DNA of 29,223 nt, taken from the IMG/VR virus record IMGVR_UViG_3300020048_006428, positions 247,178 through 276,400 of that record. The stretch is one strand, 5' to 3'. Numbering within the stretch: the first letter of the stretch is position 1; the number at the start of each line of letters is the position of its first letter. Origin of the DNA: a virus. Taxonomy: Duplodnaviria; Heunggongvirae; Uroviricota; Caudoviricetes. The notes under the pieces were generated by a model. The model searched no databases. It saw only the letters and a list, made by a program, of their open reading frames with translations, and was not told where the DNA came from. A program made the translations under genes and the position numbers. This document shows positions 41 through 13,788 of this stretch, one piece after another.

Positions 41-622
41 ATGAAAAAAATAGAACTTAAAATATTTGGACTATCATATAGTCACACACAAGCAGGATCA
101 TATGTCTTGGTTTTATCAGAATTGATTGGTAATTTAAAGTTACCAATCATTATAAAACCAGGTGATGCTCAATATATTGCTATGAAAACGGAAGGTTTGT
201 CAGCAAATAGACCAGTTATCCATGACTTGGTTAAAATGATTACTGATCAAGTTGGGGTTGATTTGCATCAGATATACATATCACATATCCTTGAAGGTGT
301 GTTTTATTGTAAATTGATTTTTGATTCAAATGGTGAAGATATAGAAATAGAATGTTCTGTTGGTGATGGTGTTTGTTTAGCATTATCATATGGTTGTCCA
401 ATTTTATGTTCAGAAGAAGTTTTAAAGCTATCTGGTATTAATATAAGTGATGATGGAACTACAAGTGAAGAGCAGATGGAGTTGAATAGAAAAGAACGTG
501 ATTATAAAGCCACTTCAACAGTTGATGATTTGGAAAAACGTTTGAGTCAAGCAATTGATAATGAAGAATATGAAATTGCATCACAAATAAGAGATAGAAT
601 TAAAGAACTTAAAAAGACATAA
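41..622 (+). CDS. Bifunctional nuclease family protein (DUF151/BFN) with C-terminal UvrB/UvrC (UVR) motif
   Basis: N-terminus GLSYSHTQAGSYVLVL..LPIII..AQYIA..RPVIHDL and later GDGVCLALSYGCPI match the DUF151 pattern. C-terminus LEKRLSQAIDNEEYEIASQIRDRIKEL is a typical UVR coiled coil. This architecture is common in Bacteroidota. Confidence 0.85.
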   Translation: MKKIELKIFGLSYSHTQAGSYVLVLSELIGNLKLPIIIKPGDAQYIAMKTEGLSANRPVIHDLVKMITDQVGVDLHQIYISHILEGVFYCKLIFDSNGEDIEIECSVGDGVCLALSYGCPILCSEEVLKLSGINISDDGTTSEEQMELNRKERDYKATSTVDDLEKRLSQAIDNEEYEIASQIRDRIKELKKT

Positions 623-627
623 TTATA

Positions 628-900
628 ATGCTTTCTAAAAAAATAGTTTTAAGGGATTTGTCTATTAAAATAATGGTAGGTGATTTAGTAACAGTCTTTA
701 GAAGAAAAGCAAATGGTTATCCAAAAAAGTTAAAAGACGATGAGTTATTCAAAGTTCTTAAAGTAGATGGTGATAAAATCTATTTGGATTTAAATGGATA
801 TGGACATGGTATAGCTTTTCATAAAGACTTTTTTATCACCAAAGAGTATAAAAGGGAATTAGTTTTAAAAGAATTATTGGAATGGCATTCTAAAAATTAG
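628..900 (+). CDS. Hypothetical protein (possible SH3/KOW-like barrel) with C-terminal tag KRELVLKELLE
   Basis: Operon-packed ORF; VGDLVTV...FKVLKVDGDKIYL suggests a small beta-barrel; ends in the recurrent C-terminal motif. Confidence 0.6.
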   Translation: MLSKKIVLRDLSIKIMVGDLVTVFRRKANGYPKKLKDDELFKVLKVDGDKIYLDLNGYGHGIAFHKDFFITKEYKRELVLKELLEWHSKN

Positions 901-908
901 AACATAAA

Positions 909-1163
909 ATGGAAATAAAAGATTTAAACGAAGTTGTTAAATATTTCAAGGAATATACAAGTAAAGAAGATGGTAAATACTATTTTCACAAGGAAGATGA
1001 TAATTTTAATATTATTATAACACCTGATAATAATCTTTACCAATTAAACACAGACCACGAAATTTGGGGAATAGAATTAGATACAATAGATAAACTAAGA
1101 ATTAGGTTTAAATCTTTTACTGGTGACGAATTGGAAAATTTATCTGATAGATGGTGTAATTAA
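909..1163 (+). CDS. Hypothetical protein
   Basis: 84-aa ORF in operon context with A-rich start; no recognisable motif. Confidence 0.6.
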   Translation: MEIKDLNEVVKYFKEYTSKEDGKYYFHKEDDNFNIIITPDNNLYQLNTDHEIWGIELDTIDKLRIRFKSFTGDELENLSDRWCN

Positions 1164-1174
1164 ATTTTAATAAA

Positions 1175-1618
1175 ATGTTAGCTTTCTTAAAAAGTAACTT
1201 AGGTATAATAACTGCCTTACTTGCATCTATATTATGGGGATTGAATTATGTTCTTTTTGAAAAGGTGATGAATAGAGTCAATATTTTCACTATGATGTTT
1301 TTTGAATATTTAATTTGTACAATCATAGTTGGAATATTGTGTTTAATATTTGGAAATATCAAAAGTGATTTACAAAACATTTATGATATAAAATATACAT
1401 TTATTGTTAATGTTTTTGTCTATCTTTTAGCAAGTCTAATGATAGCTTCATCAATAAAACACAGTAATGCAGTTGTGGCTGGATTGGTTGAAATAAGTTA
1501 TCCATTATTCATAATATTTTTTTCTTTTTTAATATTGAAAGATGTTAATATTGATATGAAAACAATTATTGGTGGATTACTTATATTTATTGGGGTTTTA
1601 ATAGTTTCTCTTAAGTAA
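1175..1618 (+). CDS. EamA/DMT-family small membrane transporter (single domain)
   Basis: About five hydrophobic helices; ALLASILWGLNYV at the N-terminus and AGLVEISYPLFIIFFSFLILK..IIGGLLIFIGVLIVS at the C-terminus match EamA signatures. Confidence 0.75.
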   Translation: MLAFLKSNLGIITALLASILWGLNYVLFEKVMNRVNIFTMMFFEYLICTIIVGILCLIFGNIKSDLQNIYDIKYTFIVNVFVYLLASLMIASSIKHSNAVVAGLVEISYPLFIIFFSFLILKDVNIDMKTIIGGLLIFIGVLIVSLK

Positions 1619-1634
1619 AAATAAAAATAATAAT

Positions 1635-1892
1635 ATGCCAACATTTGAAAATGAAATAGATATTGATGTAGATGATTTTATATCTTCTTGTTCAAAAGAT
1701 GAGATTAAAGAAATGATTGAGATCTTAAAAGAGGAATATAAAGAAGAAGTTAAAGAAGAAATTGGTTATATTAAACCAAAGACATTTCTTGAAGAATTAT
1801 TCTTAAACAATTTAGATAAAATTAAAAATAATTATTTATCATTAAGTCAAGAAGAAATAGAATATTTTGAAAAGATTTCTAAAAGATTTTAG
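1635..1892 (+). CDS. Hypothetical acidic protein
   Basis: 85-aa D/E-rich ORF with AATAATATG start context. Confidence 0.6.
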   Translation: MPTFENEIDIDVDDFISSCSKDEIKEMIEILKEEYKEEVKEEIGYIKPKTFLEELFLNNLDKIKNNYLSLSQEEIEYFEKISKRF

Positions 1893-1942
1893 AGGGCTTC
1901 CATAATTTAATAAATAGTTTATATAAAATTATGTATTAAATT

Positions 1943-2164
1943 ATGGAATTTAAACCAGGTGATAGTGTAATAAAAAATACAGGAGGTAATAAAATGAAAA
2001 TAATATCTTGTGATGATGTAGTTGCTGAATGTGTTTGGTATACAGAAAAATATAATCAATATATTTTTAATATAGAAGATTTAATACCATATAGTTTATA
2101 TCAAAAAGTTCTTATATCTGAAAAAAGGGAAGATTTAATAAAAAACATATTAGAATGGAAATAA
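1943..2164 (+). CDS. YodC/DUF2158-like small protein with C-terminal tag KREDLIKNILE
   Basis: FKPGDSV..TGGNKMKI...AECVWY resembles the DUF2158 pattern F-x-x-G-D-x-V-x-x-x-x-GG-x-x-M-x-V...C-x-W-F. Confidence 0.6.
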   Translation: MEFKPGDSVIKNTGGNKMKIISCDDVVAECVWYTEKYNQYIFNIEDLIPYSLYQKVLISEKREDLIKNILEWK

Positions 2165-2502
2165 AAAAAGTAACATATTCAGAAGTAGAAAAAGAATTCT
2201 ATTCAATAAAACCAGATTTATTGGATGAATATGCAACCTATTATGGATGCTTTGTTAAAGATATATTAGTTGGTATTGTTTCGTATGTTGAACATAAATC
2301 AGTTATTTATTTATGTCATGCTTTTGTAAAAGACGAATATAGAGGCAGGGGAATATACAAAATGTTATGGAATTATAGGGATGCTAAAATAAAAGAATCT
2401 GATAAAGTTGTATATGCACATTGTAATGTTGATAGTTTGAAGTATTTTATAAACAATGGCTTTTCAATAGAAAAAGCTCTTTTTAAAGTTGTTAGGGAAT
2501 AA
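2155..2502 (+). CDS. GNAT-family acetyltransferase
   Basis: Acetyl-CoA motif A FVKDEYRGRGIYKML and C-terminal N..SLKYFINNGF. Confidence 0.85.
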   Translation: MEIKKVTYSEVEKEFYSIKPDLLDEYATYYGCFVKDILVGIVSYVEHKSVIYLCHAFVKDEYRGRGIYKMLWNYRDAKIKESDKVVYAHCNVDSLKYFINNGFSIEKALFKVVRE

Positions 2503-2878
2503 TTATTCCCAATATTTTTTATCTTTATTTCGTTTAAGTATCTTTTTATATTTTAATACTTCATCAACATTTATGAATGTAATCCCATTATATTCAAATG
2601 ATTTATTATCAATTAAATCATCTATATCCATAGATAGCCAATTATTAAAGAATTCAATACCATCTGTCCTATACTCATTATTATCACCAAATGTCCACTT
2701 AGATGGTTTTATTATTACATCTAAATCATTCACATCATCTAATAATCCTTTTATAACTAAGGGCGGATCCAAAAACTGCATAATCACCTTTTTCTAAATT
2801 AAATTGTTTTAATTTATCTAATAGATATTCCAAACGTTCTCCACTTTGGAAGTTTTCAAATAATTTTAAGTATTTCAT
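2503..2878 (-). pseudogene. Frameshifted gene: N-terminal MKYLKLFENF tag fused to a minimal nucleotidyltransferase-like domain
   Basis: Manual translation from the ATG at 2878 (ATGA overlap with the upstream stop) gives MKYLKLFENFQSGERLEYLLDKLKQFNLEKGDYAVFGSA, stopping at 2735. The +1 frame continues LVIKGLLDDVNDLDVII...VLKYKKILKRNKD to 2503. Joined, these give a G-S...D-x-D Pol-beta-like signature. The shift maps to GCCC at 2761-2764. Confidence 0.65.
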
Positions 2879-3453
2879 ATATAAGTATATCCCTTTATTT
2901 TTTCTGGTAATTTTATATCAGTTTCATAATATTCATTGTAATCTTTAATTGCTTCTTCTAATAAATGCTTAACAATTTTACAATCTTTTCTTAAAAAATT
3001 ATAAGTTTCTTGATAGTCTAAATATATATCAACAGTAAAAAATATTTTTATTATTTCAATTATTGGATTTCTACCAAAATAAAACCCACCACCTATTTCT
3101 TTAGGACAACCTTCTAAACTGGTTAATTTATTATTAACGCATATAAAATTATTACCAACATAATTTGGACAACCATCTAAATTCGTTAGATTATTATCTG
3201 AACAATTAAACCAATCACCAACATAATTTGGACAACCTATTAATGTAGTTAAGTTGCAATTTGAACAATAAAAATGACCAGTTACTTTATTAAATTTAAT
3301 TGGCAATTCAGTGAATGTTTTTCCATCTAAATCAACATTACCATCAACATCAACAGATCCATCTGGATTTATTGAATATTTTTTTATGTTATATGTCCAA
3401 AGTGTATCAACAATGGATTCATTGTAACTTTCAAATAATTTTAAATATTTCAT
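2875..3453 (-). CDS. LRR-like protein with 21-aa repeats, paralogue 1, N-terminal tag MKYLKLFESY
   Basis: Three full units of V-x-x-x-F-x-C-x-x-x-x-L-T-x-L-x-G-C-P-x-x (e.g. VGDWFNCSDNNLTNLDGCPNY) plus partial units; N- and C-caps shared with 7931..8518. Confidence 0.8.
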   Translation of the reverse strand: MKYLKLFESYNESIVDTLWTYNIKKYSINPDGSVDVDGNVDLDGKTFTELPIKFNKVTGHFYCSNCNLTTLIGCPNYVGDWFNCSDNNLTNLDGCPNYVGNNFICVNNKLTSLEGCPKEIGGGFYFGRNPIIEIIKIFFTVDIYLDYQETYNFLRKDCKIVKHLLEEAIKDYNEYYETDIKLPEKIKGYTYI

Positions 3454-3460
3454 ATATTTC

Positions 3461-3470
3461 TATATATTAA
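3461..3470 (-). promoter_or_regulatory. TTAATATATA motif, putative phage late promoter
   Basis: Lies 7 nt upstream of the ATG at 3453; the same motif and spacing recur at 8526 and 9566. Confidence 0.6.
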
Positions 3471-3494
3471 TTTTTTTATTCCAAATATTATTCT

Positions 3495-3502
3495 TATCTT
3501 TG
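3495..3502 (+). promoter_or_regulatory. TATCTTTG, match to the Bacteroidota sigma70 -7 element TAnnTTTG
   Basis: In the divergent intergenic gap 21 nt upstream of the 3524 ATG; no clear -33 TTTG seen; could be chance in AT-rich DNA. Confidence 0.35.
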
Positions 3503-3523
3503 ATAAACTAAATCTATAAAAAT

Positions 3524-4402
3524 ATGAGTCTACGTAAATATGGTTTTTTAACTTGGGATAAAGATGAAGCATTGAAGAAGATTAATGCCATTGAAATTAT
3601 CAGAACAGATAATCAAATAGTTACCAAATATTTTGGGACTGTTAAGAAAGTCTGTAATGTATCAAATAAATATGAAGTATTTGATATAAAAGAGTTCTTA
3701 AAAGCTAAGATTGAACAAATTGAACAAAATTTTGACATTAGCCATTATAAATTAAAAATAAAAGGTGGTATTCAAGAACTAATCCTATTATCGGATGATG
3801 TAACTATTAATTCTTCAACTTACTATAAGTCATTTTATATACTAAATTCATCTGATAAATCCAGGCGTCTTAGTATGTATATGGGTCTATATAGAAGTGA
3901 TAATAATAGTTATATGGTTGGTTCTATTAAGAATATGTCCTTGCATAAAAAACACTATAAAGGTGTTACAGAAAAGGCAGAAGAAGCATCTTTGGTTATT
4001 GATGGTGAAACTTTTGATGAACAGATAAAGGCAATTCAATCATTAGTTGGTGAATCAGTTATGTTATCTAAAGTCCGTGATATATTAATTGATGAAGATT
4101 CAAACATAAATCACAAAAAATTTGATGCTTTTAAAAACTCATTAAGATATTCAAATTCTGATAAAGTAAAAGGTCTATCAGATACACAAGTAAAAACATT
4201 AAGCACACCATCTGAAAGATTGGAAATAGATTATAAAAATGACTTCTCAATTGACGCTTACCGAGTTTTTAATTGTTATATTCAACTATTCTATAACCAA
4301 GATTCACATGTTGTTAAAAAGGAAACTGATAAGATTCTGAAGATAACAACTTGTTTTATTAGAGATTCTAAAATAGAAGAAATTTTAAATTTCCTGGATT
4401 AA
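3524..4402 (+). CDS. DUF932-like protein with C-terminal tag IRDSKIEEIL
   Basis: VSNKYEVFD, FYILNSSDKSRRLSMYMGLYR and a downstream KKH resemble the DUF932 motifs VS..Y, L.NS.DGS....G..R and H, but the match is degenerate. Confidence 0.45.
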   Translation: MSLRKYGFLTWDKDEALKKINAIEIIRTDNQIVTKYFGTVKKVCNVSNKYEVFDIKEFLKAKIEQIEQNFDISHYKLKIKGGIQELILLSDDVTINSSTYYKSFYILNSSDKSRRLSMYMGLYRSDNNSYMVGSIKNMSLHKKHYKGVTEKAEEASLVIDGETFDEQIKAIQSLVGESVMLSKVRDILIDEDSNINHKKFDAFKNSLRYSNSDKVKGLSDTQVKTLSTPSERLEIDYKNDFSIDAYRVFNCYIQLFYNQDSHVVKKETDKILKITTCFIRDSKIEEILNFLD

Positions 4403-4414
4403 ATAAATATACAA

Positions 4415-4558
4415 ATGAACAAATTCAAATATATTACTACAACCTTAAATAGTATGAAAAAATATTACAGTAACCAAATACCATTACCTAAAAATAGTAT
4501 TTCTAAACTTAGAATAATTTTAGCAAAATTAAATGTTTTGAAAAAAGATGGAAATTAA
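4415..4558 (+). CDS. Micro-ORF 1 (47 aa) with degenerate C-terminal module SISKLRIILAKL
   Basis: Manual translation: MNKFKYITTTLNSMKKYYSNQIPLPKNSISKLRIILAKLNVLKKDGN*; overlaps the next start. Confidence 0.5.
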   Translation: MNKFKYITTTLNSMKKYYSNQIPLPKNSISKLRIILAKLNVLKKDGN

Positions 4559-4634
4559 ATGGTCAATTGGAAAATTAAAAAGAGTTTCAAAAATTAGAAA
4601 AATTTTAGAAAAATTAAAACAATATGGATCCTAA
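4548..4634 (+). CDS. Micro-ORF 2 (28 aa), cationic amphipathic peptide
   Basis: MEIKWSIGKLKRVSKIRKILEKLKQYGS*; overlaps both neighbours by 11 nt. Confidence 0.55.
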   Translation: MEIKWSIGKLKRVSKIRKILEKLKQYGS

Positions 4635-4734
4635 AGCAATTGATGAACTATTAAATGAACACGATAACTGGATAGATAGATATAAAATCCTATATAGAAT
4701 TTCAAAAATCAGAAAAATTTTAGAAAAAATATGA
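4624..4734 (+). CDS. Micro-ORF 3 (36 aa)
   Basis: MDPKAIDELLNEHDNWIDRYKILYRISKIRKILEKI*; ATGA overlap with the next ORF. Confidence 0.55.
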   Translation: MDPKAIDELLNEHDNWIDRYKILYRISKIRKILEKI

Positions 4735-4826
4735 AATACTTAAAATTATTTGAAAACTTTAATCAATCAGAAATTAATAGAATTTCAAAAATTAGAAAAA
4801 TTTTAGAAAAATTAGAAAAATTTTAG
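4731..4826 (+). CDS. Micro-ORF 4 (31 aa): N-terminal tag fused directly to the C-terminal module
   Basis: MKYLKLFENFNQSEINRISKIRKILEKLEKF*. A 20-bp tandem duplication (4791-4810 = 4811-4830) changes the ending from KLKQYG* to KLEKF*. Confidence 0.55.
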   Translation: MKYLKLFENFNQSEINRISKIRKILEKLEKF

Positions 4827-4841
4827 AAAAATTAAAACAAT

Positions 4842-5009
4842 ATGGGTGAAAATAATATGTTTGATTATGACTATTGGAAAGCACAATTTATAATTGAATC
4901 TGATAAGTGGACTTGCTCGCGAATGAGTGGGAGGCTGATGAGCTGGAAAGATCAATATAAAAATAGTAATAGAATTTCAAAAATCAGAAAAATTTTAAAC
5001 AAACTTTAA
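4842..5009 (+). CDS. Micro-ORF 5 (55 aa; alternative start 4857)
   Basis: MGENNMFDYDYWKAQFIIESDKWTCSRMSGRLMSWKDQYKNSNRISKIRKILNKL*; contains a GC-rich segment at 4907-4950. Confidence 0.55.
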   Translation: MGENNMFDYDYWKAQFIIESDKWTCSRMSGRLMSWKDQYKNSNRISKIRKILNKL

Positions 5010-5027
5010 TTTTTCTATATAATTTCT

Positions 5028-5768
5028 ATGAAAGAATTAATTTTAGAAAAATTAAAATGCTTTGAACAAGATGATAAATTTTCATTCAATCCCAAGTATC
5101 ATAAATATACATATGATGGTGAAGTTTTAAAATCAGTAACAACATTGGTTAGTGAATTACATATTAAATTTGATTTTGAAGGAAAATCTAAAAAGAAAGC
5201 CGAAGAAGTCGGTGTTGACCAAAATTGGATAAAAGCAGAATGGTATGAAACCAATAGATATGCCAATGAAATTGGGACAGCCACACACCAATGGATAGAA
5301 GATTATTATAATCAAAAGTGGAATCCATTACCAACCAATCCAGATCTTATACATAGAATAAATAAATTCAATAAGATATACTGTAAATACTTACATAAAT
5401 TAACACCTGTTAAATTTGAAGTAAGGCTTTTTTCTAAAAAATGGAAGTTAGCTGGAACATTAGATGGTTTATTCCTTATGAATGATAAACTTTATATTTT
5501 AGATTATAAAACAAATAAAGTATTTAAAGATGATAATCATGAAGATGGTAGATGGAGAAAATTACTACCACCATTCAATTCTTTTTATGAAAACCACCAC
5601 AATGAATACTCAATACAATTATGTCTTTATGCCTTGATTTTAGAAGAATGGGGTATAAATGTATCAAGTGCTTATATAATTTATATTGGTCCTGATGACG
5701 AAGATGCAAAATTTGTAAAAGTAAAAGATATGCGTGAATATATTAAACAATATTTTGAAAGCCTCTAA
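5028..5768 (+). CDS. PD-(D/E)XK exonuclease, RecB/Cas4-like phage type
   Basis: HKYTYDG..LKSVTT, GTATH, FEVRLFSKKWKLAGTLDGL, ILDYKT and YSIQLCLYALIL motifs. Confidence 0.85.
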   Translation: MKELILEKLKCFEQDDKFSFNPKYHKYTYDGEVLKSVTTLVSELHIKFDFEGKSKKKAEEVGVDQNWIKAEWYETNRYANEIGTATHQWIEDYYNQKWNPLPTNPDLIHRINKFNKIYCKYLHKLTPVKFEVRLFSKKWKLAGTLDGLFLMNDKLYILDYKTNKVFKDDNHEDGRWRKLLPPFNSFYENHHNEYSIQLCLYALILEEWGINVSSAYIIYIGPDDEDAKFVKVKDMREYIKQYFESL

Positions 5769-5785
5769 TAATTAGAGGCTTTTTT
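5758..5785 (+). terminator. Intrinsic terminator between convergent genes
   Basis: AAAGCCTCTA-ATAAT-TAGAGGCTTT followed by a T-run. Confidence 0.75.
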
Positions 5786-5787
5786 AT

Positions 5788-6159
5788 TTACATTTTTACA
5801 ATAAAAAAATGATTTAATGGACATCCACCACCATAGGAATCATATCTAATCTGATCAAAACTTGGCCATATCTTAAGAATACTTTCAAAAGGTTTTACCC
5901 CATTGCCAGGAAAGGAAAGTCCTAAATTATCACCAACTGTAAATATTTCACCATCTGCCTTTCTTTTAACTGAATATATTTCAATATTATCATCTTCTGT
6001 TCTATCAGCATTATTTACACATATTGAAATAAGTCTATCAGTTGGATCTACAATATCATCACCATCTTTAATAGATAGTATATCAAAATATCTTAGAAAT
6101 TCCGTTTTAGCATCTGGTTCTGATTCTTCAAAAATTTTATAATGTTTTAAATATTTCAT
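5788..6159 (-). CDS. Hypothetical protein with N-terminal tag MKYLKHYKIFEES
   Basis: 123-aa ORF at the end of a minus-strand operon; tag-like N-terminus. Confidence 0.65.
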   Translation of the reverse strand: MKYLKHYKIFEESEPDAKTEFLRYFDILSIKDGDDIVDPTDRLISICVNNADRTEDDNIEIYSVKRKADGEIFTVGDNLGLSFPGNGVKPFESILKIWPSFDQIRYDSYGGGCPLNHFFIVKM

Positions 6160-6174
6160 ATAAGTCTATTTTTT

Positions 6175-6882
6175 TTAAGCATAAGAATATGTGAATGATT
6201 TTATAAAATCAATCGCTAAACTATATTTATCTGATAGTGAATAAGTATTATCATCAATCATTAGATATGAATATGTTGGTGCGTATATTTCAGACCAATG
6301 TGTTGAATATGTTGGTGTTATTAAATTATTAACAGAATATGTATATGATGTTATACAGTCATATATTTTATTATTATAAATCATATGATTTCCAATATTA
6401 TAAGCAATTGGCTTTCTTCTATCATCTATAAATTGTGGTATAGAAGCACTTGTAGAACTTGGAATACCAACCATAGATTCTACATCAATATATAATTCAA
6501 TATATTTTTTATTTATTAATGATACTTCATTTTCTATTTCTTTTATATCACCTAAATAGTGATTATTAGTTTTATCATAGAAATGAAAACCTATTTGATA
6601 TACATTTTTTGTATTAAATAAATTATTTAATACTAATGCTGTATTTGTTATTGTATTTAATCTAACAATATCATATGAGTTTTTCTTAAAATCATCAATC
6701 GTTTTAAATTTATCTATATCAATCTTATATTTGGCAGACATAACATCTTCCAATAGATTATATTGTCCATTACTAATAAACTCATCAATTAATAAATAAT
6801 AATCAAATGTAGCATCAATTCCTTTTTGTGCTAATTTGTTTATTTTCTTATACATTTTGTCGTATTCTCTTCTATAATTCAT
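6175..6882 (-). CDS. Hypothetical protein with a C-terminal CBM5/12-like module
   Basis: AYNIGNHMIYNNKIYDCITSYT..P..STHW resembles the Y..G..V.Y.G..Y.C...H...P...W pattern of carbohydrate-binding module family 5/12. Confidence 0.5.
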   Translation of the reverse strand: MNYRREYDKMYKKINKLAQKGIDATFDYYLLIDEFISNGQYNLLEDVMSAKYKIDIDKFKTIDDFKKNSYDIVRLNTITNTALVLNNLFNTKNVYQIGFHFYDKTNNHYLGDIKEIENEVSLINKKYIELYIDVESMVGIPSSTSASIPQFIDDRRKPIAYNIGNHMIYNNKIYDCITSYTYSVNNLITPTYSTHWSEIYAPTYSYLMIDDNTYSLSDKYSLAIDFIKSFTYSYA

Positions 6883-7934
6883 TATTTACCTAATATTTTA
6901 TCAATTTGATCAATTTTGGCTTTATTATTATCATCAGAAATAAATTCGGCAAAATTGGCAACTTTAGACATTTTTTCTTCATCATTTTTAATTTTCCCTA
7001 ATGCGTCTGCTGCTTTTTTAGCATTGTCACCCATATCATTTTCAGCAACACCTATAATATCTTTATAACCCTTTTTAATGGTTGGTGAATTGTTTTTATC
7101 CAAAAATACTACACTTTGATCAGTATCATTTTGATCTAAACTATTTATTACTTTAACACCAACTATATCTTGTTGTTCAGTTGGTTTTTTGTTTTTATCA
7201 TAGTCATTTTTATCTTTATCTTTAAGTAAATATATAACAGGTGTTTTCTTATCAAAATATTCTTTTAATTTATCATAAGTCATTTCATCAGCATTTTCAC
7301 CTGATTTAGATTTAAGTTCTTTATAAAGTTTATCAATTTCTTCTTCTGTAATATCTTTTCTTAATTGATTTTTAATTTCCTTTTGAAAATTATCTAAGAA
7401 AGTAGATGCTATCTTCTTTTTTGCATTTATATCTTTTCCTTTATTTACTTCAATTATATAGTTAGATTTTGAATATTTAAATTTTATATCCTTTTTTAAT
7501 AATCCTTTTTGTGGATCAATTAAACCAACTAATCCAACAAAATCCATTTCTTTATTACCCATTAATATAGCTTTTGATAGTTCTATAACTGCTTTGGATT
7601 TACCTTTTCCTAAAGCAGTTTCAATATCCTTTCCTATATTATTTGATAGTTGGACTAAATTAATAGAAAAATTATCTACAATTCCTAATATAGATGTTTC
7701 ATCTTTTATATTAATTATTTCTTTTTGTGCCGAGTCTATTGCTTGATCTAAATTAGTTGTTATTACATTTACTAATGAATTTGGATCATCTTCTTTAAAC
7801 ATCTTTTTAAAATCATTGGCTAAGTCTTTAAATGGCCCAGCAAACATATTAGCAAGTTTTCCCAAAGCACCCTTTAAAGCAGGTAAAATGAATTCTTCAT
7901 TTAATTTAAATTCTTCGTATTTTTTAATTTTCAT
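6882..7934 (-). CDS. Hypothetical helical protein with N-terminal tag MKIKKYEEFKLNEE; candidate internal virion protein
   Basis: 350 aa; ATGA-coupled to LRR paralogue 2; amphipathic segment ILPALKGALGKLANMF follows the tag. Confidence 0.65.
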   Translation of the reverse strand: MKIKKYEEFKLNEEFILPALKGALGKLANMFAGPFKDLANDFKKMFKEDDPNSLVNVITTNLDQAIDSAQKEIINIKDETSILGIVDNFSINLVQLSNNIGKDIETALGKGKSKAVIELSKAILMGNKEMDFVGLVGLIDPQKGLLKKDIKFKYSKSNYIIEVNKGKDINAKKKIASTFLDNFQKEIKNQLRKDITEEEIDKLYKELKSKSGENADEMTYDKLKEYFDKKTPVIYLLKDKDKNDYDKNKKPTEQQDIVGVKVINSLDQNDTDQSVVFLDKNNSPTIKKGYKDIIGVAENDMGDNAKKAADALGKIKNDEEKMSKVANFAEFISDDNNKAKIDQIDKILGK

Positions 7935-8518
7935 ATGTAGGTATATCCTTCTATTTTTTCTGGTAGTTCTACCTGTTTATCATAATATTCATTGTAATCT
8001 TTAATAACTTCTTCTAAAAGATGTTTAACTATTTTACAATCTTTTCTTAAAAAGTTATATGTTTCTTGATAGTTTAAATATATTTTAACATTATAATCAA
8101 ATAATCGTATGACCCAATGTGTTATTGGATTTTCATGTGGAAAAAAATCACCACCTATTATTTTTGGATATCCATCCAAACTAGTTAATTCATTATCTTC
8201 CATATCAAAATCACCAACAACTTCTTTTGGACCACCTATTAAATTTGTTAATTCATTACCTATACAATAAAAATCATCACCTACATAATTTGGACTATTT
8301 TCTAATGTAGTTAATTCATTTCCACAACAATCAAACCAACCTGAAACTTTATTAAATTTAAGTGGCATTTTTGTTAATTTTTTACTATTTAAATCAACAT
8401 CACCATCTACATCAATTGATCCATCTGAATTAATTATATAGTTTTGTATACCATAATATTCACAAATATCATCAATTTGTGATTGATTGAAGTTTTCAAA
8501 TAATTTTAAGTATTTCAT
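7931..8518 (-). CDS. LRR-like protein with 21-aa repeats, paralogue 2, N-terminal tag MKYLKLFENF
   Basis: Units VSGWFDCCGNELTTLENSPNY / VGDDFYCIGNELTNLIGGPKE / VVGDFDMEDNELTSLDGYPKI; C-cap YQETYNFLRKDCKIVKHLLEE is shared with paralogue 1. Confidence 0.8.
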   Translation of the reverse strand: MKYLKLFENFNQSQIDDICEYYGIQNYIINSDGSIDVDGDVDLNSKKLTKMPLKFNKVSGWFDCCGNELTTLENSPNYVGDDFYCIGNELTNLIGGPKEVVGDFDMEDNELTSLDGYPKIIGGDFFPHENPITHWVIRLFDYNVKIYLNYQETYNFLRKDCKIVKHLLEEVIKDYNEYYDKQVELPEKIEGYTYI

Positions 8519-8525
8519 ATATACT

Positions 8526-8535
8526 TATATATTAA
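8526..8535 (-). promoter_or_regulatory. TTAATATATA motif, putative late promoter
   Basis: 7 nt upstream of the ATG at 8518. Confidence 0.6.
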
Positions 8536-8556
8536 ATAAACAAACCTAAAATTTAT

Positions 8557-9558
8557 TTATATAATATACTTAAATTTATAACCATTCCTTGACTTACATT
8601 CCTCTATATACTTAGATATAGTAGATCTTTTCATACTAAAATGATTAGATGCTTCTGTCAGTGAGTTAAATTCCATATATTCATTTTTATTTTCATTATA
8701 TGCAGAAACTTTAAACCCTTTTGTCTTTTTATTAAAAAAATTATTATAATCCACATCACTAATTTCAGATTCATATATCCACGCAAAATCACCACAAGTT
8801 TTCCTTTTTTTATTAAGACACAACCATATATTTTTGAAGCTTAAATTGTTTTCCCTTGATGCACACATTAAATTATCATAATTAGTAAAAATACCATACT
8901 TATCTATCCGATAAATCTTTTGTCCTAATTTTGTTGTTTTAGATATCCTAATTTTAAGTTTTTCTTCAATATTTGTATCATCTTGAAAGAAAAATGTATA
9001 ACCCCTATTGAAATTCATCCCCCCATTTAATATATCAGATATATTTTTATATGATACATTCAATTTCTCACTGGCTCTTCTTGAATTATTAAAATATTCA
9101 ATTAAATTCTCATTAATATCATAACATACTATTTTTTTACCGCTATTGTATGTAGCTATAAAAATTTTTTCTTTAGTTTTCTCTGACATTTTTCTACCTC
9201 TACTCTTTTCACCAATTTTTCTCCTAGTTTCGGCTGATGGATTTTGTAATCCATCACCACCTTCTGTCATATTTAATAAATTTACACCCAAATATCTAAA
9301 TAATCTAATATAGTGTATTTCCCAATAATCAATTTCAGATTCAAATTCATCTATTATAAAAAATTCTGGTTTCAAATTATCCAAAAATAAATGATGTTTC
9401 CACATAGATAGTCTTGTAGCATAATGGTTTTTATCTTTACTACAGTGGTTTTTATACCTATTTTTAGGATTTTTTGTTTTTCCAATATAAACAACCTCAT
9501 TTGTAATTGGGTGTGATAAACAATAAATATAATTTTTCATAGTCGGTAGTTTCTTCAT
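8557..9558 (-). mobile_element. Free-standing GIY-YIG homing endonuclease gene with NUMOD3 and three NUMOD1-like DNA-binding repeats
   Basis: YIY..VYIGKT..R..H and E...I...LLNMTEGG catalytic domain; SAETRRKIGEKSRGRKMSEKTKEKI (NUMOD3); three I/V..yd....F.s...As repeats (NUMOD1). No flanking intron or split host gene is evident. Confidence 0.9.
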
Positions 9559-9565
9559 TTAATTT

Positions 9566-9574
9566 TATATATTA
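9566..9574 (-). promoter_or_regulatory. TAATATATA motif, putative late promoter
   Basis: 7 nt upstream of the endonuclease ATG at 9558. Confidence 0.55.
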
Positions 9575-9619
9575 TTAAACTTTTATTACCCTTTCTAATA
9601 AAATAATAAAAAATAAAAT

Positions 9620-10165
9620 ATGAATTTACAAGAATATATTAATTTATCAGAAAAAACATTATCTACTGAATTTCATTCAGATAAAAAGATGGAAAATATT
9701 TTACATGCTGCAATTGGTCTTGCTACAGAAATTGATGAGCTACTTGATAACTATGAAAATGAAATGGATCCAATAAACCTCTTAGAGGAAGTTGGTGATA
9801 TTTATTGGTATTTAGCAATATTTTATAGGGAATATCCTGGTTCTGAAAAATTTAATCAATTTTTAGAAAAAAAATCACCTGAAAAAATAGTTATGGATAT
9901 ACTAAAATCTATACTAAAAATTCAAGATATGATAAAGAAGAAACTCTTCTACAATAAAAATATTGATAGTGAATCACTAATTGGATTAGTAATTTCAATT
10001 AATTCTAATTTATCAATATATTTAGAAAAATATAACTTAAATATAGAAGATGTTTGGTGTAAAAATATCAATAAATTAAAAGCTCGTTATGGAGATAAGT
10101 TTTCATCTGAAAAAGCTATAAATAGAGATTTAGTAAAAGAAAAAAATATTTTAGAAAATGAATAA
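9620..10165 (+). CDS. MazG-like nucleotide pyrophosphohydrolase (all-alpha NTP-PPase)
   Basis: LHAAIGLATEIDELLD...LLEEVGDIYWYLA and C-terminal NINKLKARYGDKFS..A..RD. Confidence 0.85.
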   Translation: MNLQEYINLSEKTLSTEFHSDKKMENILHAAIGLATEIDELLDNYENEMDPINLLEEVGDIYWYLAIFYREYPGSEKFNQFLEKKSPEKIVMDILKSILKIQDMIKKKLFYNKNIDSESLIGLVISINSNLSIYLEKYNLNIEDVWCKNINKLKARYGDKFSSEKAINRDLVKEKNILENE

Positions 10166-10514
10166 TTTAGTACAATTAATGCAAACTATTTCAGTTAGAA
10201 ATAAACTACTTTCTAATGATTTGAAATCAATGAAAAATGAATTAGAGGCTATTTTTGAAAATAAAGTTTTAGAAGCTGGCGTAACTACACCAGGTTATTT
10301 CCATTACTTCTTACCCACTTTAGATAAATATCAATATAATAGAATTATAACTTCATATCATATGTCAGAAGAACAATATAGTGATGGTACAACTGGACAA
10401 AATATTAAAATACCAATAGTTGATGTTATGTCAAATGGTAATTCAATTAGGATTTTTATAACACCAAGAACATTTTTAAGAAATCTAAAATTAGAACATT
10501 TATTAAATGAATAA
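10158..10514 (+). CDS. Hypothetical protein with C-terminal tag LRNLKLEHLL
   Basis: Overlaps both neighbours by 8 nt. Confidence 0.6.
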   Translation: MNNLVQLMQTISVRNKLLSNDLKSMKNELEAIFENKVLEAGVTTPGYFHYFLPTLDKYQYNRIITSYHMSEEQYSDGTTGQNIKIPIVDVMSNGNSIRIFITPRTFLRNLKLEHLLNE

Positions 10515-11277
10515 AATATATTTAGGTGATTGTTTGGAATTGATGAATGATATACCAGATAAAAGCATAGACCTTATATGTTGTGATTTACCATATGGAA
10601 CTACTAAATGTTCTTGGGATTCAATTATACCATTAGATAAATTATGGGAGCATTATAAAAGAATTATCAAGAACAATGGTGCGATAATATTATTTGCACA
10701 AACACCATTTGATAAAGTGTTAGGGTGTTCAAACTTAGAATGGTTAAGATATGAATGGATATGGGAAAAAACTCAAGCAACAGGATTTTTAAATGCAAAA
10801 AAAATGCCCCTAAAATCACATGAAAATATATTAGTTTTTTATAAAAATTTACCAACATATAATCCACAAAAAACATTTGGTCATAAGCCAATAAATAAAT
10901 ATACTAAAAAAGCATCAGTTCAAAATAAAACCGAAGTATATGGTAAAGTTAAAACTGATGTTAGTGGTGGTGGTGAAACAGATAGATATCCAAGAAGTGT
11001 TCAGATATTTTCATCTGATAAACAAAAAAACAAATTAAATGGTACAATTCACCCTACGCAAAAACCATTAAAACTATTAGAATATCTAATAATGACATAT
11101 AGTAATGAAGGTGATGTTGTATTAGATAATTGTGCTGGATCATCAACAACAGCAATTGCTTGTATTAATACAAATAGAAATTGGATTATGATGGAAAAGG
11201 AAGAAAAGTATTTTGAATTATCAAAAGGAAGAATTACAGAACATTTTAGGGATAAACAAATTAAATCAATAATATGA
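10507..11277 (+). CDS. Site-specific DNA methyltransferase (N6-adenine/N4-cytosine, beta class) with appended C-terminal tag FRDKQIKSII
   Basis: Catalytic motif DLPYG (DPPY variant) near the N-terminus; HPTQKP and VVLDNCAGSSTT SAM-binding region near the C-terminus. Confidence 0.9.
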   Translation: MNKIYLGDCLELMNDIPDKSIDLICCDLPYGTTKCSWDSIIPLDKLWEHYKRIIKNNGAIILFAQTPFDKVLGCSNLEWLRYEWIWEKTQATGFLNAKKMPLKSHENILVFYKNLPTYNPQKTFGHKPINKYTKKASVQNKTEVYGKVKTDVSGGGETDRYPRSVQIFSSDKQKNKLNGTIHPTQKPLKLLEYLIMTYSNEGDVVLDNCAGSSTTAIACINTNRNWIMMEKEEKYFELSKGRITEHFRDKQIKSII

Positions 11278-11351
11278 ATTGGACTAAACTCCAAGAATTA
11301 CTGCCGACTCAGCGATTTGGTTGGAAAGAAAATAATATGAATTGGACTAAA
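11268..11351 (+). repeat. 21-bp direct repeat AATAATATGAATTGGACTAAA flanking a 42-bp unique insert
   Basis: Exact copies at 11268-11288 and 11331-11351 (63-bp period, in frame); the insert is 19/42 G+C. Confidence 0.9.
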
Positions 11352-11723
11352 AATATTTTATTAAGTGAAACTGGTTTGGATTTTGATTTTCTTTATATTA
11401 AATCTAAAAAGGTATTATTTAATTATCATAGTCTTTGTGAAACAATAAGAATTGTAGAACTTAACAATGGAAAAATAAATTTTTTCTATTATAGTGGTTT
11501 AATTCACAAAAATAATTTCTTCTATAAAAATAAGCTAAGTTATAAATATTTATGTTTTCGATTTTATAAACTTTTTAATAATTTTTATCTAAAAGATGAA
11601 AGAATTGATGACTTCACAAACAGTGATAAATTCAAAAAATATATGGAAAAATATCCATTTTTAGTGGAACATTTTCCTATATTTAAAAGAGAAGAAAAAC
11701 TAAAACAGTTATTAGATGAATAA
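11274..11723 (+). CDS. Hypothetical protein with a duplicated start (MNWTK twice) and C-terminal tag KREEKLKQLL
   Basis: ATGA-coupled to the methyltransferase; alternative start at 11337. Confidence 0.6.
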   Translation: MNWTKLQELLPTQRFGWKENNMNWTKNILLSETGLDFDFLYIKSKKVLFNYHSLCETIRIVELNNGKINFFYYSGLIHKNNFFYKNKLSYKYLCFRFYKLFNNFYLKDERIDDFTNSDKFKKYMEKYPFLVEHFPIFKREEKLKQLLDE

Positions 11724-12048
11724 AGTTATTTATAAAACAAAATTTGAAATATTACCAACAAGGAAAATATCAGCAGATAGGGAAAATAAATTGAATCTAC
11801 TTGAAATAGATTGTTTCTTTTCAGATTCACAAATTAAATTACCAGAAGTTGATAGCTTATTCGTCTTAAATGGTAATAAATATAAAGTTGAAGGGTTTAA
11901 ATATAGTCTCTCAAAAGAAGATGATGAAACAATATATGAAACAATAATTGTACTAATGGATTTTTTAAATAGACAAACACCTGATACTGGTGCTAAATAT
12001 AAACCTTATATGGATATATATTTAAATCCAAATAAAAAAATAATATAA
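11716..12048 (+). CDS. Hypothetical protein with an internal tag-like segment DRENKLNLL
   Basis: Operon-coupled 110-aa ORF. Confidence 0.6.
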   Translation: MNKVIYKTKFEILPTRKISADRENKLNLLEIDCFFSDSQIKLPEVDSLFVLNGNKYKVEGFKYSLSKEDDETIYETIIVLMDFLNRQTPDTGAKYKPYMDIYLNPNKKII

Positions 12049-12054
12049 AAAAAT

Positions 12055-13227
12055 ATGAATAAATTAGCTTTAAATTTCATTTGTAAAAATGAATCAAAAG
12101 TAATAGAGCGGATGTTAAATTCTGTTAAAAATATAGTTGATTTAATAGTTGTTAATGACACTGGTTCTACTGATGGTACACAGGATATAATTAAAAAATT
12201 TGGAATTGATAATGATATACCAACTTTTGTTTTTGAACGAACTTTTGATGACTTCCAAAATAGTCGGAATTTTGCAATGCAAAAATTAAATGATGTTGTT
12301 AATGATATTGGTTGGGATAAAGACAAAACCCATGGGTTTTGGATAGATTGTGATGAACAACTTGTTATTGATCACAATTTTAACAAGACACAATTTACAA
12401 AAGATTTATATATGATAAATACATATATTGGATCAATGAAATATACTAGAAATACATTTTTTAAGCTTTCAAAAAGTTTTGAATGGTATGGTGTAGTTCA
12501 TGAATTTATTATTTCAAAAGAAAGTGGATTGACATCAGGGTTAGCAGAAAATATTTCTGTTAAGGTTAGTATGGATGGACATTCTTGGGATGGAAATATA
12601 TCAGATAAATATTTTAATCATTCTCAAATTCTTGAAAAATATTTATCAAAGGATAAGAGAGATCCAAGGTGGATTTTCTATTGTGCTCAATCCTTTCATG
12701 ATTCAGCTTCTAGCCAAGATAGACTTGAAAATGAAGAAAGATTAAGACGTTCTATGAAATATTATAAAGAACGTGTTAATAGAACAGATGGTTATGAAGA
12801 AGAAAGATTTTACTCACAATTCCGTTTAGGAACGATTAAAAGAGCTTTGGAATATCCTTGGGCAGAAACTATGCAAGAGTTGCTTAAAGCCTATGCAATG
12901 GATCCAATGAGGGCTGAACCTATAAAGGTTATAATTGATTATTACTTATCTGTAAATGAATGGAATTTAGCTTATCTTTATAGTAAAGCAGCTAAAGTAA
13001 CTTTCCACGGAAAAAACCCATATCCAACCAGATTATTATTTGTTGATGAATCATTATATACATGGAAATTATTAGAAGTGCATGCGGCAGCTTGTTATTA
13101 CACAGGTAGAAAAGAAGAAGCGGCAGCGACTTATAAAGAACTACAAGATATAATTAAAAAGATGCCACAAATATTTTCACAAGATGATATGAATAAAATT
13201 AATGCAAATGCACAATTCTTTAGATAA
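12055..13227 (+). CDS. Glycosyltransferase family 2 with C-terminal TPR-like repeats
   Basis: ICKNESKVIERMLNSV..IVVNDTGSTDGT, DxD motif (WIDCDE) and W.GVVHE, followed by helical TPR-like repeats (RWIFYCAQSF, P.RAEP). Confidence 0.88.
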   Translation: MNKLALNFICKNESKVIERMLNSVKNIVDLIVVNDTGSTDGTQDIIKKFGIDNDIPTFVFERTFDDFQNSRNFAMQKLNDVVNDIGWDKDKTHGFWIDCDEQLVIDHNFNKTQFTKDLYMINTYIGSMKYTRNTFFKLSKSFEWYGVVHEFIISKESGLTSGLAENISVKVSMDGHSWDGNISDKYFNHSQILEKYLSKDKRDPRWIFYCAQSFHDSASSQDRLENEERLRRSMKYYKERVNRTDGYEEERFYSQFRLGTIKRALEYPWAETMQELLKAYAMDPMRAEPIKVIIDYYLSVNEWNLAYLYSKAAKVTFHGKNPYPTRLLFVDESLYTWKLLEVHAAACYYTGRKEEAAATYKELQDIIKKMPQIFSQDDMNKINANAQFFR

Positions 13228-13230
13228 AAT

Positions 13231-13788
13231 ATGGCTAAATTAATATGTATTTTAGGTGCGCCTGCATCTGGGAAATCTACTTTGGCTTCTGATGTTCACA
13301 CTGAACTAAAGAAGCTGGGTAAGAATTCAATCTATATAACGGAAGCCGCTACAGACTTTATCGCAGAATTCGGAATACCAAATAGTCCAATAGATCAATT
13401 AGTTATATTCTATCAACAATTAAATAGAGAAAGAATGTATTTGGATTCTAAGGATTATATAATATGTGATTCATCTGGAATTTTAAATTATTTCTATTTT
13501 AGGGGTTTATTTGGTAACAAATTATCTAATAAAGATATAGCAGTTATCAATCACTTACAAAAGGAAATACTTAAAACTATCAATCAGTGGTCAAATATAT
13601 TTTATATACCACCAATTTTAAATAATAAATCATCTAATGATGGAATAAGATATCACAATGATGATCAAATAGTTAAATTAGATCGTTGGATAAAATCTTA
13701 TTTGGAATTGGAAAATATTGAACACGATGATTTGTCTGATGTTAAAATTAATGATAGGGCAAATGTAATTATACAAAAAATATTATAA
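13231..13788 (+). CDS. P-loop NTPase/kinase, AAA_28 (NadR/Ttd14-like)
   Basis: Walker A GAPASGKST, EAATDFI, IICDSS, and a late DGIRYH segment. Confidence 0.75.
   Translation: MAKLICILGAPASGKSTLASDVHTELKKLGKNSIYITEAATDFIAEFGIPNSPIDQLVIFYQQLNRERMYLDSKDYIICDSSGILNYFYFRGLFGNKLSNKDIAVINHLQKEILKTINQWSNIFYIPPILNNKSSNDGIRYHNDDQIVKLDRWIKSYLELENIEHDDLSDVKINDRANVIIQKIL

Follow-up and report, generated by a model that had tools for sequence, protein, structure and literature searches.

The window, i.e., the whole 29,223-nt stretch of DNA analyzed here, comprises bases 247178 to 276400 of a 276.4-kb IMG/VR virus record with ~25% GC and an estimated completeness of 47%. All three stop codons are in use in the record, and it therefore follows the standard genetic code. 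Contigs of the same phage reach 354 kb, and the runs that hold it are labelled aquatic, marine, or freshwater. Deposited phages that resemble the record at the DNA level are few; all are huge and uncultured, with sizes of 634 and 642 kb.

Our subject is a slot between two genes that we call the anchors. The first-pass annotation had described this apparently noncoding 625-nt gap as tiled by five ORFs, four of them linked by overlaps of 11, 11, and 4 nt; the ORFs were confirmed, at 47, 28, 36, 31, and 55 aa on the plus strand, and so were the overlaps. Each of the five carries a copy of a short repeated module, and the upstream anchor ends in a related peptide, here termed the tag. The features are as follows.

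3524-4402, plus strand: upstream anchor gene, 292 aa; ends in the tag ..CFIRDSKIEEILNFLD, with tag codons at 4361-4387
4415-4558, plus strand: micro-ORF1, 47 aa; diverged module copy 1 at 4493-4531
4548-4634, plus strand: micro-ORF2, 28 aa; module copy 2 plus the tail AAAACAATATGG at 4578-4627
4624-4734, plus strand: micro-ORF3, 36 aa; module copy 3 at 4693-4731
4731-4826, plus strand: micro-ORF4, 31 aa; 5' end of a gene family (45 nt), then module copy 4
4842-5009, plus strand: micro-ORF5, 55 aa; module copy 5 at 4968-5006
5028-5768, plus strand: downstream anchor gene, PD-(D/E)XK exonuclease, 246 aa (phrog_298, 3e-33; PF12705)

The 292-aa protein has 835 homologues, and all of those sampled keep CF[IV]R[DE]EK[IL]..[IL]L at the C-terminal end. 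Its AF2 model (mean pLDDT of 82) has the tag as a C-terminal helix at residues 281 to 291, with pLDDT below 50 at residues 279 to 287. Sequence searches of Pfam, PHROG, and PDB gave no match. Fold searches gave a best Z of 4.8 in VIA-align and, in Foldseek, weak RAD52 rows only (E ≥ 0.075), which leave a role as an SSAP unsupported. The N-terminal [ILV]L.KLK.[FY][DE]D of the exonuclease is ancestral and is shared by distant homologues.

A homing endonuclease gene of the GIY-YIG/NUMOD type sits on the minus strand of the window (8557-9558), at a distance of 3.5 kb from the slot. A distant relative (contig L036; 6491-7345, 2426-3022) has a LAGLIDADG-like gene after its exonuclease gene; it also has a resolvase gene ~500 nt upstream of its homologue of the 292-aa gene, from which one small gene separates it. 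Such mobile nucleases may play a part in DNA breakage and repair near the anchors.

Coupled micro-ORFs and their repeated module

In the window strain the array starts 12 nt past the stop codon of the 292-aa gene, and the exonuclease ATG follows 18 nt after its end. The overlap of ORF3 and ORF4 is an ATGA, and the ATG of ORF3 is supplied by the ORF2 tail AAAACAATATGG, which occurs in the whole record only at 4616 and 4834. Together, ORFs of 25 aa or more account for 92.8% of the 625 nt. This degree of tiling was reached by 0 of 5,000 Markov-1 sequences, 0 of 2,024 antisense-of-gene windows, and 0 of 5,000 runs in which the modules were held fixed and the unique parts were shuffled. Frame-specific codon scores of the micro-ORFs are positive in frame 0 only and fall in the low tail of real genes (quantiles of 0.01 to 0.28). 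On the reading favored below, the micro-ORFs would be translated.

The module of ORF4 is lengthened by a 20-nt tandem duplication (4787-4806 = 4807-4826), which shifts the frame to a TAG. It had been proposed that ORF5 would also overlap its neighbor if this duplication were absent, and a natural variant shows as much: contig L028 is identical save for the missing 4787-4806, and its ORF4 has 32 aa, ends in ...EKLKQYG, and overlaps ORF5 by 8 nt. The array minus the duplication was independently assembled in a 41-kb ENA contig, and parts of it are found in Logan contigs, so it is not an assembly artifact. Contig breaks within the array, considered as a sign of heterogeneity, were discounted, since repeats of at least 31 nt lead one to expect such breaks in the source-sample contigs.

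A 36-nt in-frame insert in ORF5 (4911-4946; 58% GC) encodes 12 aa, TCSRMSGRLMSW. GC-rich 36-nt islands number only 25 in the 276 kb, this one among them, and the record holds no second copy of the insert. A hammerhead-like CUGAUGAG within the insert has no Rfam match and was treated as chance.

Signals for transcription and RNA structure are sparse in the slot. The terminator scan returned 0 terminator-like sites, and the promoter scan, run with the sigma-70 form, which may not be that of the host, returned 11 sites compared to 7.8 ± 2.8 in shuffles. With the same sigma-70 form, the module copies have no recurring promoter match, only isolated 9-of-12 matches that touch copy 3. Folding of the array RNA revealed no structure (z = +0.99), and the Rfam scan gave nothing relevant, its one chance-level match (RefA9, 4084-4132, E = 1) lying outside the array.

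The in-frame module that had been noticed in all five ORFs is indeed present in each, as ~36 nt at the 3' end. Its 29-nt core, TTTCAAAAATYAGAAAAATTTTAGAAAAA, has 5 matches at up to 3 mismatches, compared to 0 in 100 shuffles; the five take in the extra copy made by the 20-bp duplication and leave out copy 1 (4493-4531), which has diverged to 79% identity, with S for R and A for E. The module has a single open reading frame, the other two containing TAG. Weaker copies are found at the end of the 292-aa gene, in its last codons (4357-4389), and at the start of the exonuclease gene, in its first codons (5038-5073). A search for the repeat beyond the locus drew a blank in the rest of the 276-kb record, where the 23-nt core does not recur. 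Exact scans of the databases for this core did give single, scattered matches, at 2 loci in IMG/VR and 12 loci in the JGI/ENA metagenomes, one of the latter (L016) being a contig of the V2 strain described below; neither collection yielded a second array family. The copies are irregularly spaced (85, 115, 83, 20, and 172), the module has an internal periodicity of 10 to 11 nt (TAGAAAAATTT / TAGAAAAATTA), and no dyad was found in or beside it beyond the trivial AAAATTTT.

Direct repeats of ~36 nt with unique segments between them bring to mind a CRISPR-like or other noncoding RNA array, and some huge phages do carry CRISPR arrays. Here, however, the spacers would range from 44 to 133 nt, plus one 20-nt slip, neither a repeat hairpin nor RNA structure is present (z = +0.99), and the region is tiled by ORFs. 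A CRISPR array was rejected on its irregular period, on this tiling, and on the lack of a relevant Rfam match, and we give the whole class of explanation next to no credence.

The module peptide as a C-terminal tag

The short, amphipathic peptide encoded by the module is an instance of a genome-wide motif, R-x-x-x-[IL]-x-x-[IL]-[IL]. Over the called proteins of 60 aa or more (357 genes were called in all), this motif has 51 occurrences, and 22 of the 51 lie no more than 8 residues from the C terminus, compared to 1.9 expected. Control motifs, reversed, respaced, or with K for R, show no C-terminal enrichment. Within the window, C-tagged genes end at 900, 2164, 4402, 10514, 11277, and 11723. 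The fuller form of the tag is [FIL]-R-[DE]-x-K-[IL]-x-x-[IL]-L-[EDN], located 0 to 8 aa before the stop. It is not confined to this phage: in 100 kb of the 634-kb relative (LR745206, 490000-589999; L056/L057), 20 of 151 called genes are C-tagged, against 1.4 expected.

The codons of the tag track genome usage (AGA/AGG/CGT for R; TTA/CTA/TTG/CTT for L), and it therefore looks like a protein motif. The distance from the tag to the next start is anywhere between -10 and +143, and in two cases the gene after a tagged gene is convergent, which argues likewise for a peptide motif and not a DNA site. Its carriers are mostly small unknown proteins, plus one N6/N4 DNA methylase; Pfam and PHROG searches with 10 other tagged proteins showed no shared function, and a literature search for a C-terminal tag in huge or jumbo phages found nothing relevant. 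The tag may dock its carriers onto a shared, putative partner.

ORF2 to ORF5 fit the tag definition (R...[IL]..[IL][IL] within 8 residues of the C-terminal end). ORF1 of the window strain fails it (SISKLRIILAKL), and the ORF1 counterpart in contig L024 fits, with the consensus tag NRIFKLRKILEKL. Tagged micro-ORFs also stand alone between genes elsewhere in the genome, at 134582-134686 (plus strand, 34 aa) and 159500-159607 (minus strand, 35 aa) of the whole record (G000). The second of these begins MDPK, as does ORF3, and may be a distant paralogue.

An N-terminal motif, MK[YH][LI]K.FE.F, was observed as well. It starts more than 25 genes (in the window at 4731, 3453(-), 6159(-), 8518(-), and 28975; also in G000), and its carriers include a family of ~11 to 13 members ending in ..GYTYI and several unrelated proteins. 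We take it to resemble the capsid targeting sequence of T4. ORF4 (MKYLKLFE..) is the only array ORF to have this motif, and it bears the C-terminal tag too.

Strain variation in the slot and the sources of its pieces

For the comparison of strains we used contigs that match in their 292-aa protein at 99% identity or more. At this level of identity the slot is found in four to five states, and the unit content of the array is thus polymorphic between near-identical strains.

V1, window strain: ORFs of 47, 28, 36, 31, and 55 aa
V1', contig L028: as V1 minus the 20-nt duplication; ORFs of 47, 28, 36, 32, and 55 aa
V2, five contigs from several studies, including that of run X3: GC hairpin, 114-aa gene, 42-aa tagged ORF, and a 43-aa ORF5
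V2b, contig L024: 114-aa gene joined to an ORF1-like unit at the 8-nt microhomology CTTAAATA
V3: ORFs of 37 and 66 aa

The contig of run X3, from an independent metagenome, has 663 unlike nucleotides in place of window positions 4405 to 4943, between flanks that are ~96 to 98% identical. Comparison of V1 with V2 shows that identity ends 3 nt past the stop codon of the 292-aa gene and restarts exactly at the 5' edge of the pre-ORF5 module. Only this one of the mapped boundaries falls at a module; the others fall at microhomologies. In L024 an A6-to-A5 change carries the ORF1-like frame on into ORF2-like and ORF3-like sequence. The remodelling events include microhomology joins, indels of 1 and 9 nt, a 36-nt insertion, and the polymorphic 20-nt duplication. 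Two module-to-module joints in run X4 (4628>4808 and 4821>4968) were left uncounted, their sides being only 25 and 21 nt at 80% likeness.

Exact look-ups with ORF1, ORF3, both exonuclease variants, and the 112-aa variant turned up no further arrangements. A search for close relatives through the exonuclease found none in IMG/VR, and one through the 292-aa protein matched only at 48 to 49% identity. Distant relatives (48 to 65% identity) keep both anchors, with 1 to 3 large unrelated genes between them. The slot differs in close and distant relatives and is thus variable at every comparison depth.

ORF5 is the sole unit common to V1 and V2. Its 36-nt insert is absent from the 43-aa form in V2, and the frame is open either way. 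Homologues of ORF5 are limited to its own forms of 55, 43, and 38 aa, in a database that seems poor in proteins below ~38 aa. For ORF1, the only alignable diverged unit, our own count of changes between the window strain and L024 is ~8 nonsynonymous and 1 synonymous, a ratio that gives no sign of purifying selection.

Other differences between the strains lie beside the slot. V2 has a 295-aa gene directly downstream of the exonuclease (L022 5903-6790, minus strand) that is absent at window 5768-5788; it is a second presence/absence polymorphism adjoining the same anchor. A 125-aa gene of V2 (L022 2488-2865, minus strand) is split into 92 and 47 aa in the window (2503-2878, minus strand) and in L028, which indicates a frameshift. 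V2 also has a GC hairpin (gccgg..ctggc) and a T-rich run after the 292-aa gene (L025 2216-2250), absent in the window strain, which likely form a terminator.

These comparisons bear on two explanations in which the peptides themselves would be beside the point. The first is that the repeats form an array of DNA-level sites, with A-tracts phased at ~10 to 11 nt, which an origin, a partition site, or a regulator would use as binding sites or bent DNA, the ORFs being incidental. The near-identity of the 29-nt cores, the 10- to 11-nt periodicity within the module (TAGAAAAATTT / TAGAAAAATTA), and the recombination/replication-type genes that adjoin the slot would all suit such an array. Yet the module is present in 5 copies in V1 and 2 in V2, in near-identical strains with flanks ~96 to 99% identical, on which ground an iteron-type origin was rejected. 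The spacing is irregular (85, 115, 83, 20, and 172), the open frames are strongly kept, and the same peptide motif recurs, in varied codons, in dozens of other proteins. We therefore hold a DNA-level array to be very improbable.

The second is a regulatory relay, in which the coupled micro-ORFs would act as a leader that hands ribosomes from the 292-aa gene to the exonuclease gene. It accommodates the overlaps of 11, 11, and 4 nt (and of 8 nt in the duplication-free variant), the 18-nt gap to the exonuclease ATG, the lack of a terminator or of promoter enrichment in the slot, and the unstructured RNA. The hairpin and 114-aa gene of V2 and the large genes of the distant relatives show, however, that a relay is not conserved, the coupling is broken by the 20-nt duplication in the window strain itself, and the conserved tag is left unexplained. 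A relay thus seems improbable, less so than a DNA-level array.

Some of the pieces of the array can be traced. The genome has three occurrences of the 18-mer ATTTTAGAAAAATTAAAA. Two are the 3' halves of module copies 2 and 4, and the third is at codons 5 to 10 of the exonuclease gene (5040-5057). Because the exonuclease N terminus is ancestral, copying ran from the exonuclease gene to the 3' half of the module. The 5' half is 73 to 76% identical over 33 nt to the tag codons that end the 292-aa gene (family D4). The module is a mosaic, in which the 3' half derives from the exonuclease gene start and the 5' half resembles the end tag of the 292-aa gene. The tail of ORF1 (4515-4550) is a diverged copy of exonuclease codons 4 to 15, 78% identical to 5038-5073 (family D5), and this homology is plainer in L024. 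The first 45 nt of ORF4 are the 5' end of a multicopy gene family starting MKYLKLFENFNQSEID: they are 100% identical to G000 77972-78016 and have 21 matches at 88.9% identity or more (E ≤ 2e-5), which proved to be gene starts wherever a comparison was made; the window has two of these (3453 and 8518, both minus strand). The N-terminal part of ORF4 thus has counterparts elsewhere. The other N-terminal parts have no match in the rest of the record or in the protein database.

Such origins lend some weight to a third explanation, namely, that the array is recombination debris: young gene fragments joined illegitimately or homologously, whose peptides have no function and whose frames would be open since the pieces came from coding frames and the module has only one open frame. 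ORF4 is a family 5' fragment plus a module, and the ORF1 tail copies the exonuclease start with a frameshift. Purifying selection shows no sign, codon scores are low, and the micro-ORFs have no homologues outside the lineage. Frames are also broken and fused between strains, by the 20-nt duplication that truncates ORF4 and by the A6-to-A5 change in L024. On the other side, 5 of 5 units sit in the single open frame of the module and are start-stop coupled, and the tiling was never reached in three nulls. Both strain types have ORF5, whose frame survives a 36-nt insertion; stand-alone tagged micro-ORFs exist elsewhere in the genome, and the tag is conserved throughout the clade at the protein level. 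We consider debris an unlikely explanation, though less so than a relay. The narrower idea that the units are fragments of one decayed gene, raised at the outset, does not hold.

Proposed modular shuffling and its known counterparts

The reading that we favor, as on balance somewhat probable, is that of a hyperplastic, strain-variable slot between conserved anchors in which tagged micro-genes are shuffled via a coding junction module. The near-identical module repeats would act as portable homology, at which the homologous recombination of the phage itself and replication slippage would add, delete, replace, or resize units, and the rest of the slot would be remodelled by microhomology joins and small indels. 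The ~36- to 48-nt module encodes the tag and the stop and, in two of its copies, also the ATG that comes next, and so a segment joined through it inherits both tag and stop, often together with the following start codon. Use of the module as a handle is suggested by its place at the V1/V2 boundary and by the polymorphic 20-nt slip that it hosts, and we infer that recombination at the module is the main driver of slot variation.

How far the initial description carries over can be judged from the same data. That variable parts are fused in frame to a constant tag-plus-restart module is supported. Their generation by recombination between repeats fits at least one boundary, which lies exactly at a module, and does not fit several other events, which are microhomology joins, indels, and an insertion. 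Nothing was found to show that the array is a purposeful peptide library. Frame and coupling statistics, the retention of ORF5, the stand-alone tagged ORFs, and clade-wide conservation of the tag speak for a function of the peptides; the gene-fragment units, labile frames, low codon scores, and ~8:1 changes in ORF1 speak against one.

The layout was also thought to match no described system, a view that overlooked the PeSL cassettes of T4 (PMC2839356) and the T4 internal-protein loci (PMC3012670). PeSLs (promoter-early stem-loop elements) are conserved repeated junctions that flank small ORFans in the hyperplastic regions of T4-type phages (Arbiol et al. 2010, PMC2839356). It is at these elements that near-identical phages differ by an insertion, a deletion, or a replacement; each element carries the start of the next gene, and the phage machinery is proposed to recombine the short patches of homology that they provide (PMC2839356). 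PeSL-mediated modular shuffling is the closest known system in function: here, too, a repeated junction lies by ORFans in a hyperplastic region, and the right boundary of V1/V2 falls at the 5' edge of a module. PeSLs, however, are intergenic and about 100 bp long, with a sigma-70-like promoter, a stem-loop, and an SD (PMC2839356), whereas our module is coding and forms the last 12 to 16 codons of each ORF. It has no sigma-70-like promoter match, although the promoter type of the host may differ, and no stem-loop (0 terminator-like sites; fold z = +0.99). Its units have only 28 to 55 codons, and it is confined to one locus.

Integron cassettes share with the array one-directional, promoterless small ORFs, a repeated element, and strain-variable content. 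The repeat sits within coding sequence here, unlike in an integron, and has no attC-like imperfect palindrome. No integrase of the tyrosine-recombinase type was found among 20 proteins scanned in window 41-13788 (a set that leaves out ORFs 909-1163, 1635-1892, and 2489-2797), in which only the GIY-YIG homing endonuclease appeared, and an integron array was rejected on these two grounds. Gene-converted clusters of tandem paralogues likewise have near-identical segments inside diverged, neighboring small genes. In the array, by contrast, the unique parts are not homologous to one another, which means that it is not a duplicated gene family, and its pieces have at least three sources.

The tag of the T4 internal proteins is N-terminal and is cleaved off by the prohead protease; it is known to act in capsid loading. 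Its likeness to ours is that of a short terminal peptide on otherwise unrelated proteins; the differences are that our tag is C-terminal and that its carriers in the array are far smaller. At the T4 internal-protein loci, the capsid targeting sequence is all that the diverse proteins have in common (Rao and Black 2010, PMC3012670). From these comparisons, the array would seem to resemble both PeSLs and T4 internal-protein loci in its working and to belong to neither.

A bolder version, which we put forward as speculation and think rather unlikely, is that the module works as an address peptide and that the slot is a nursery, itself evolving fast, for minimal proteins with the tag. The products would be tag-only adaptors, decoys, or cargo for a tag-reading machine, and the tag coding sequence would itself be the recombination handle, so that new N termini would be born in frame, addressed, and restart-coupled. 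If this were true, the slot would be a coding counterpart of PeSL and integron cassettes, by which small proteins could arise de novo.

Small ORFans number in the hundreds in huge phages, and the natural strains compared at this locus show how such genes can assemble: existing gene ends are joined in frame via a repeated coding junction that holds a tag and the next start. The C-terminal tag marks ~6 to 13% of proteins in the clade. If it is an address or docking signal, the array is a natural experiment in new tagged mini-proteins; if it is not, the slot is a well-delimited case of hyperplastic-region dynamics outside the T4 group.
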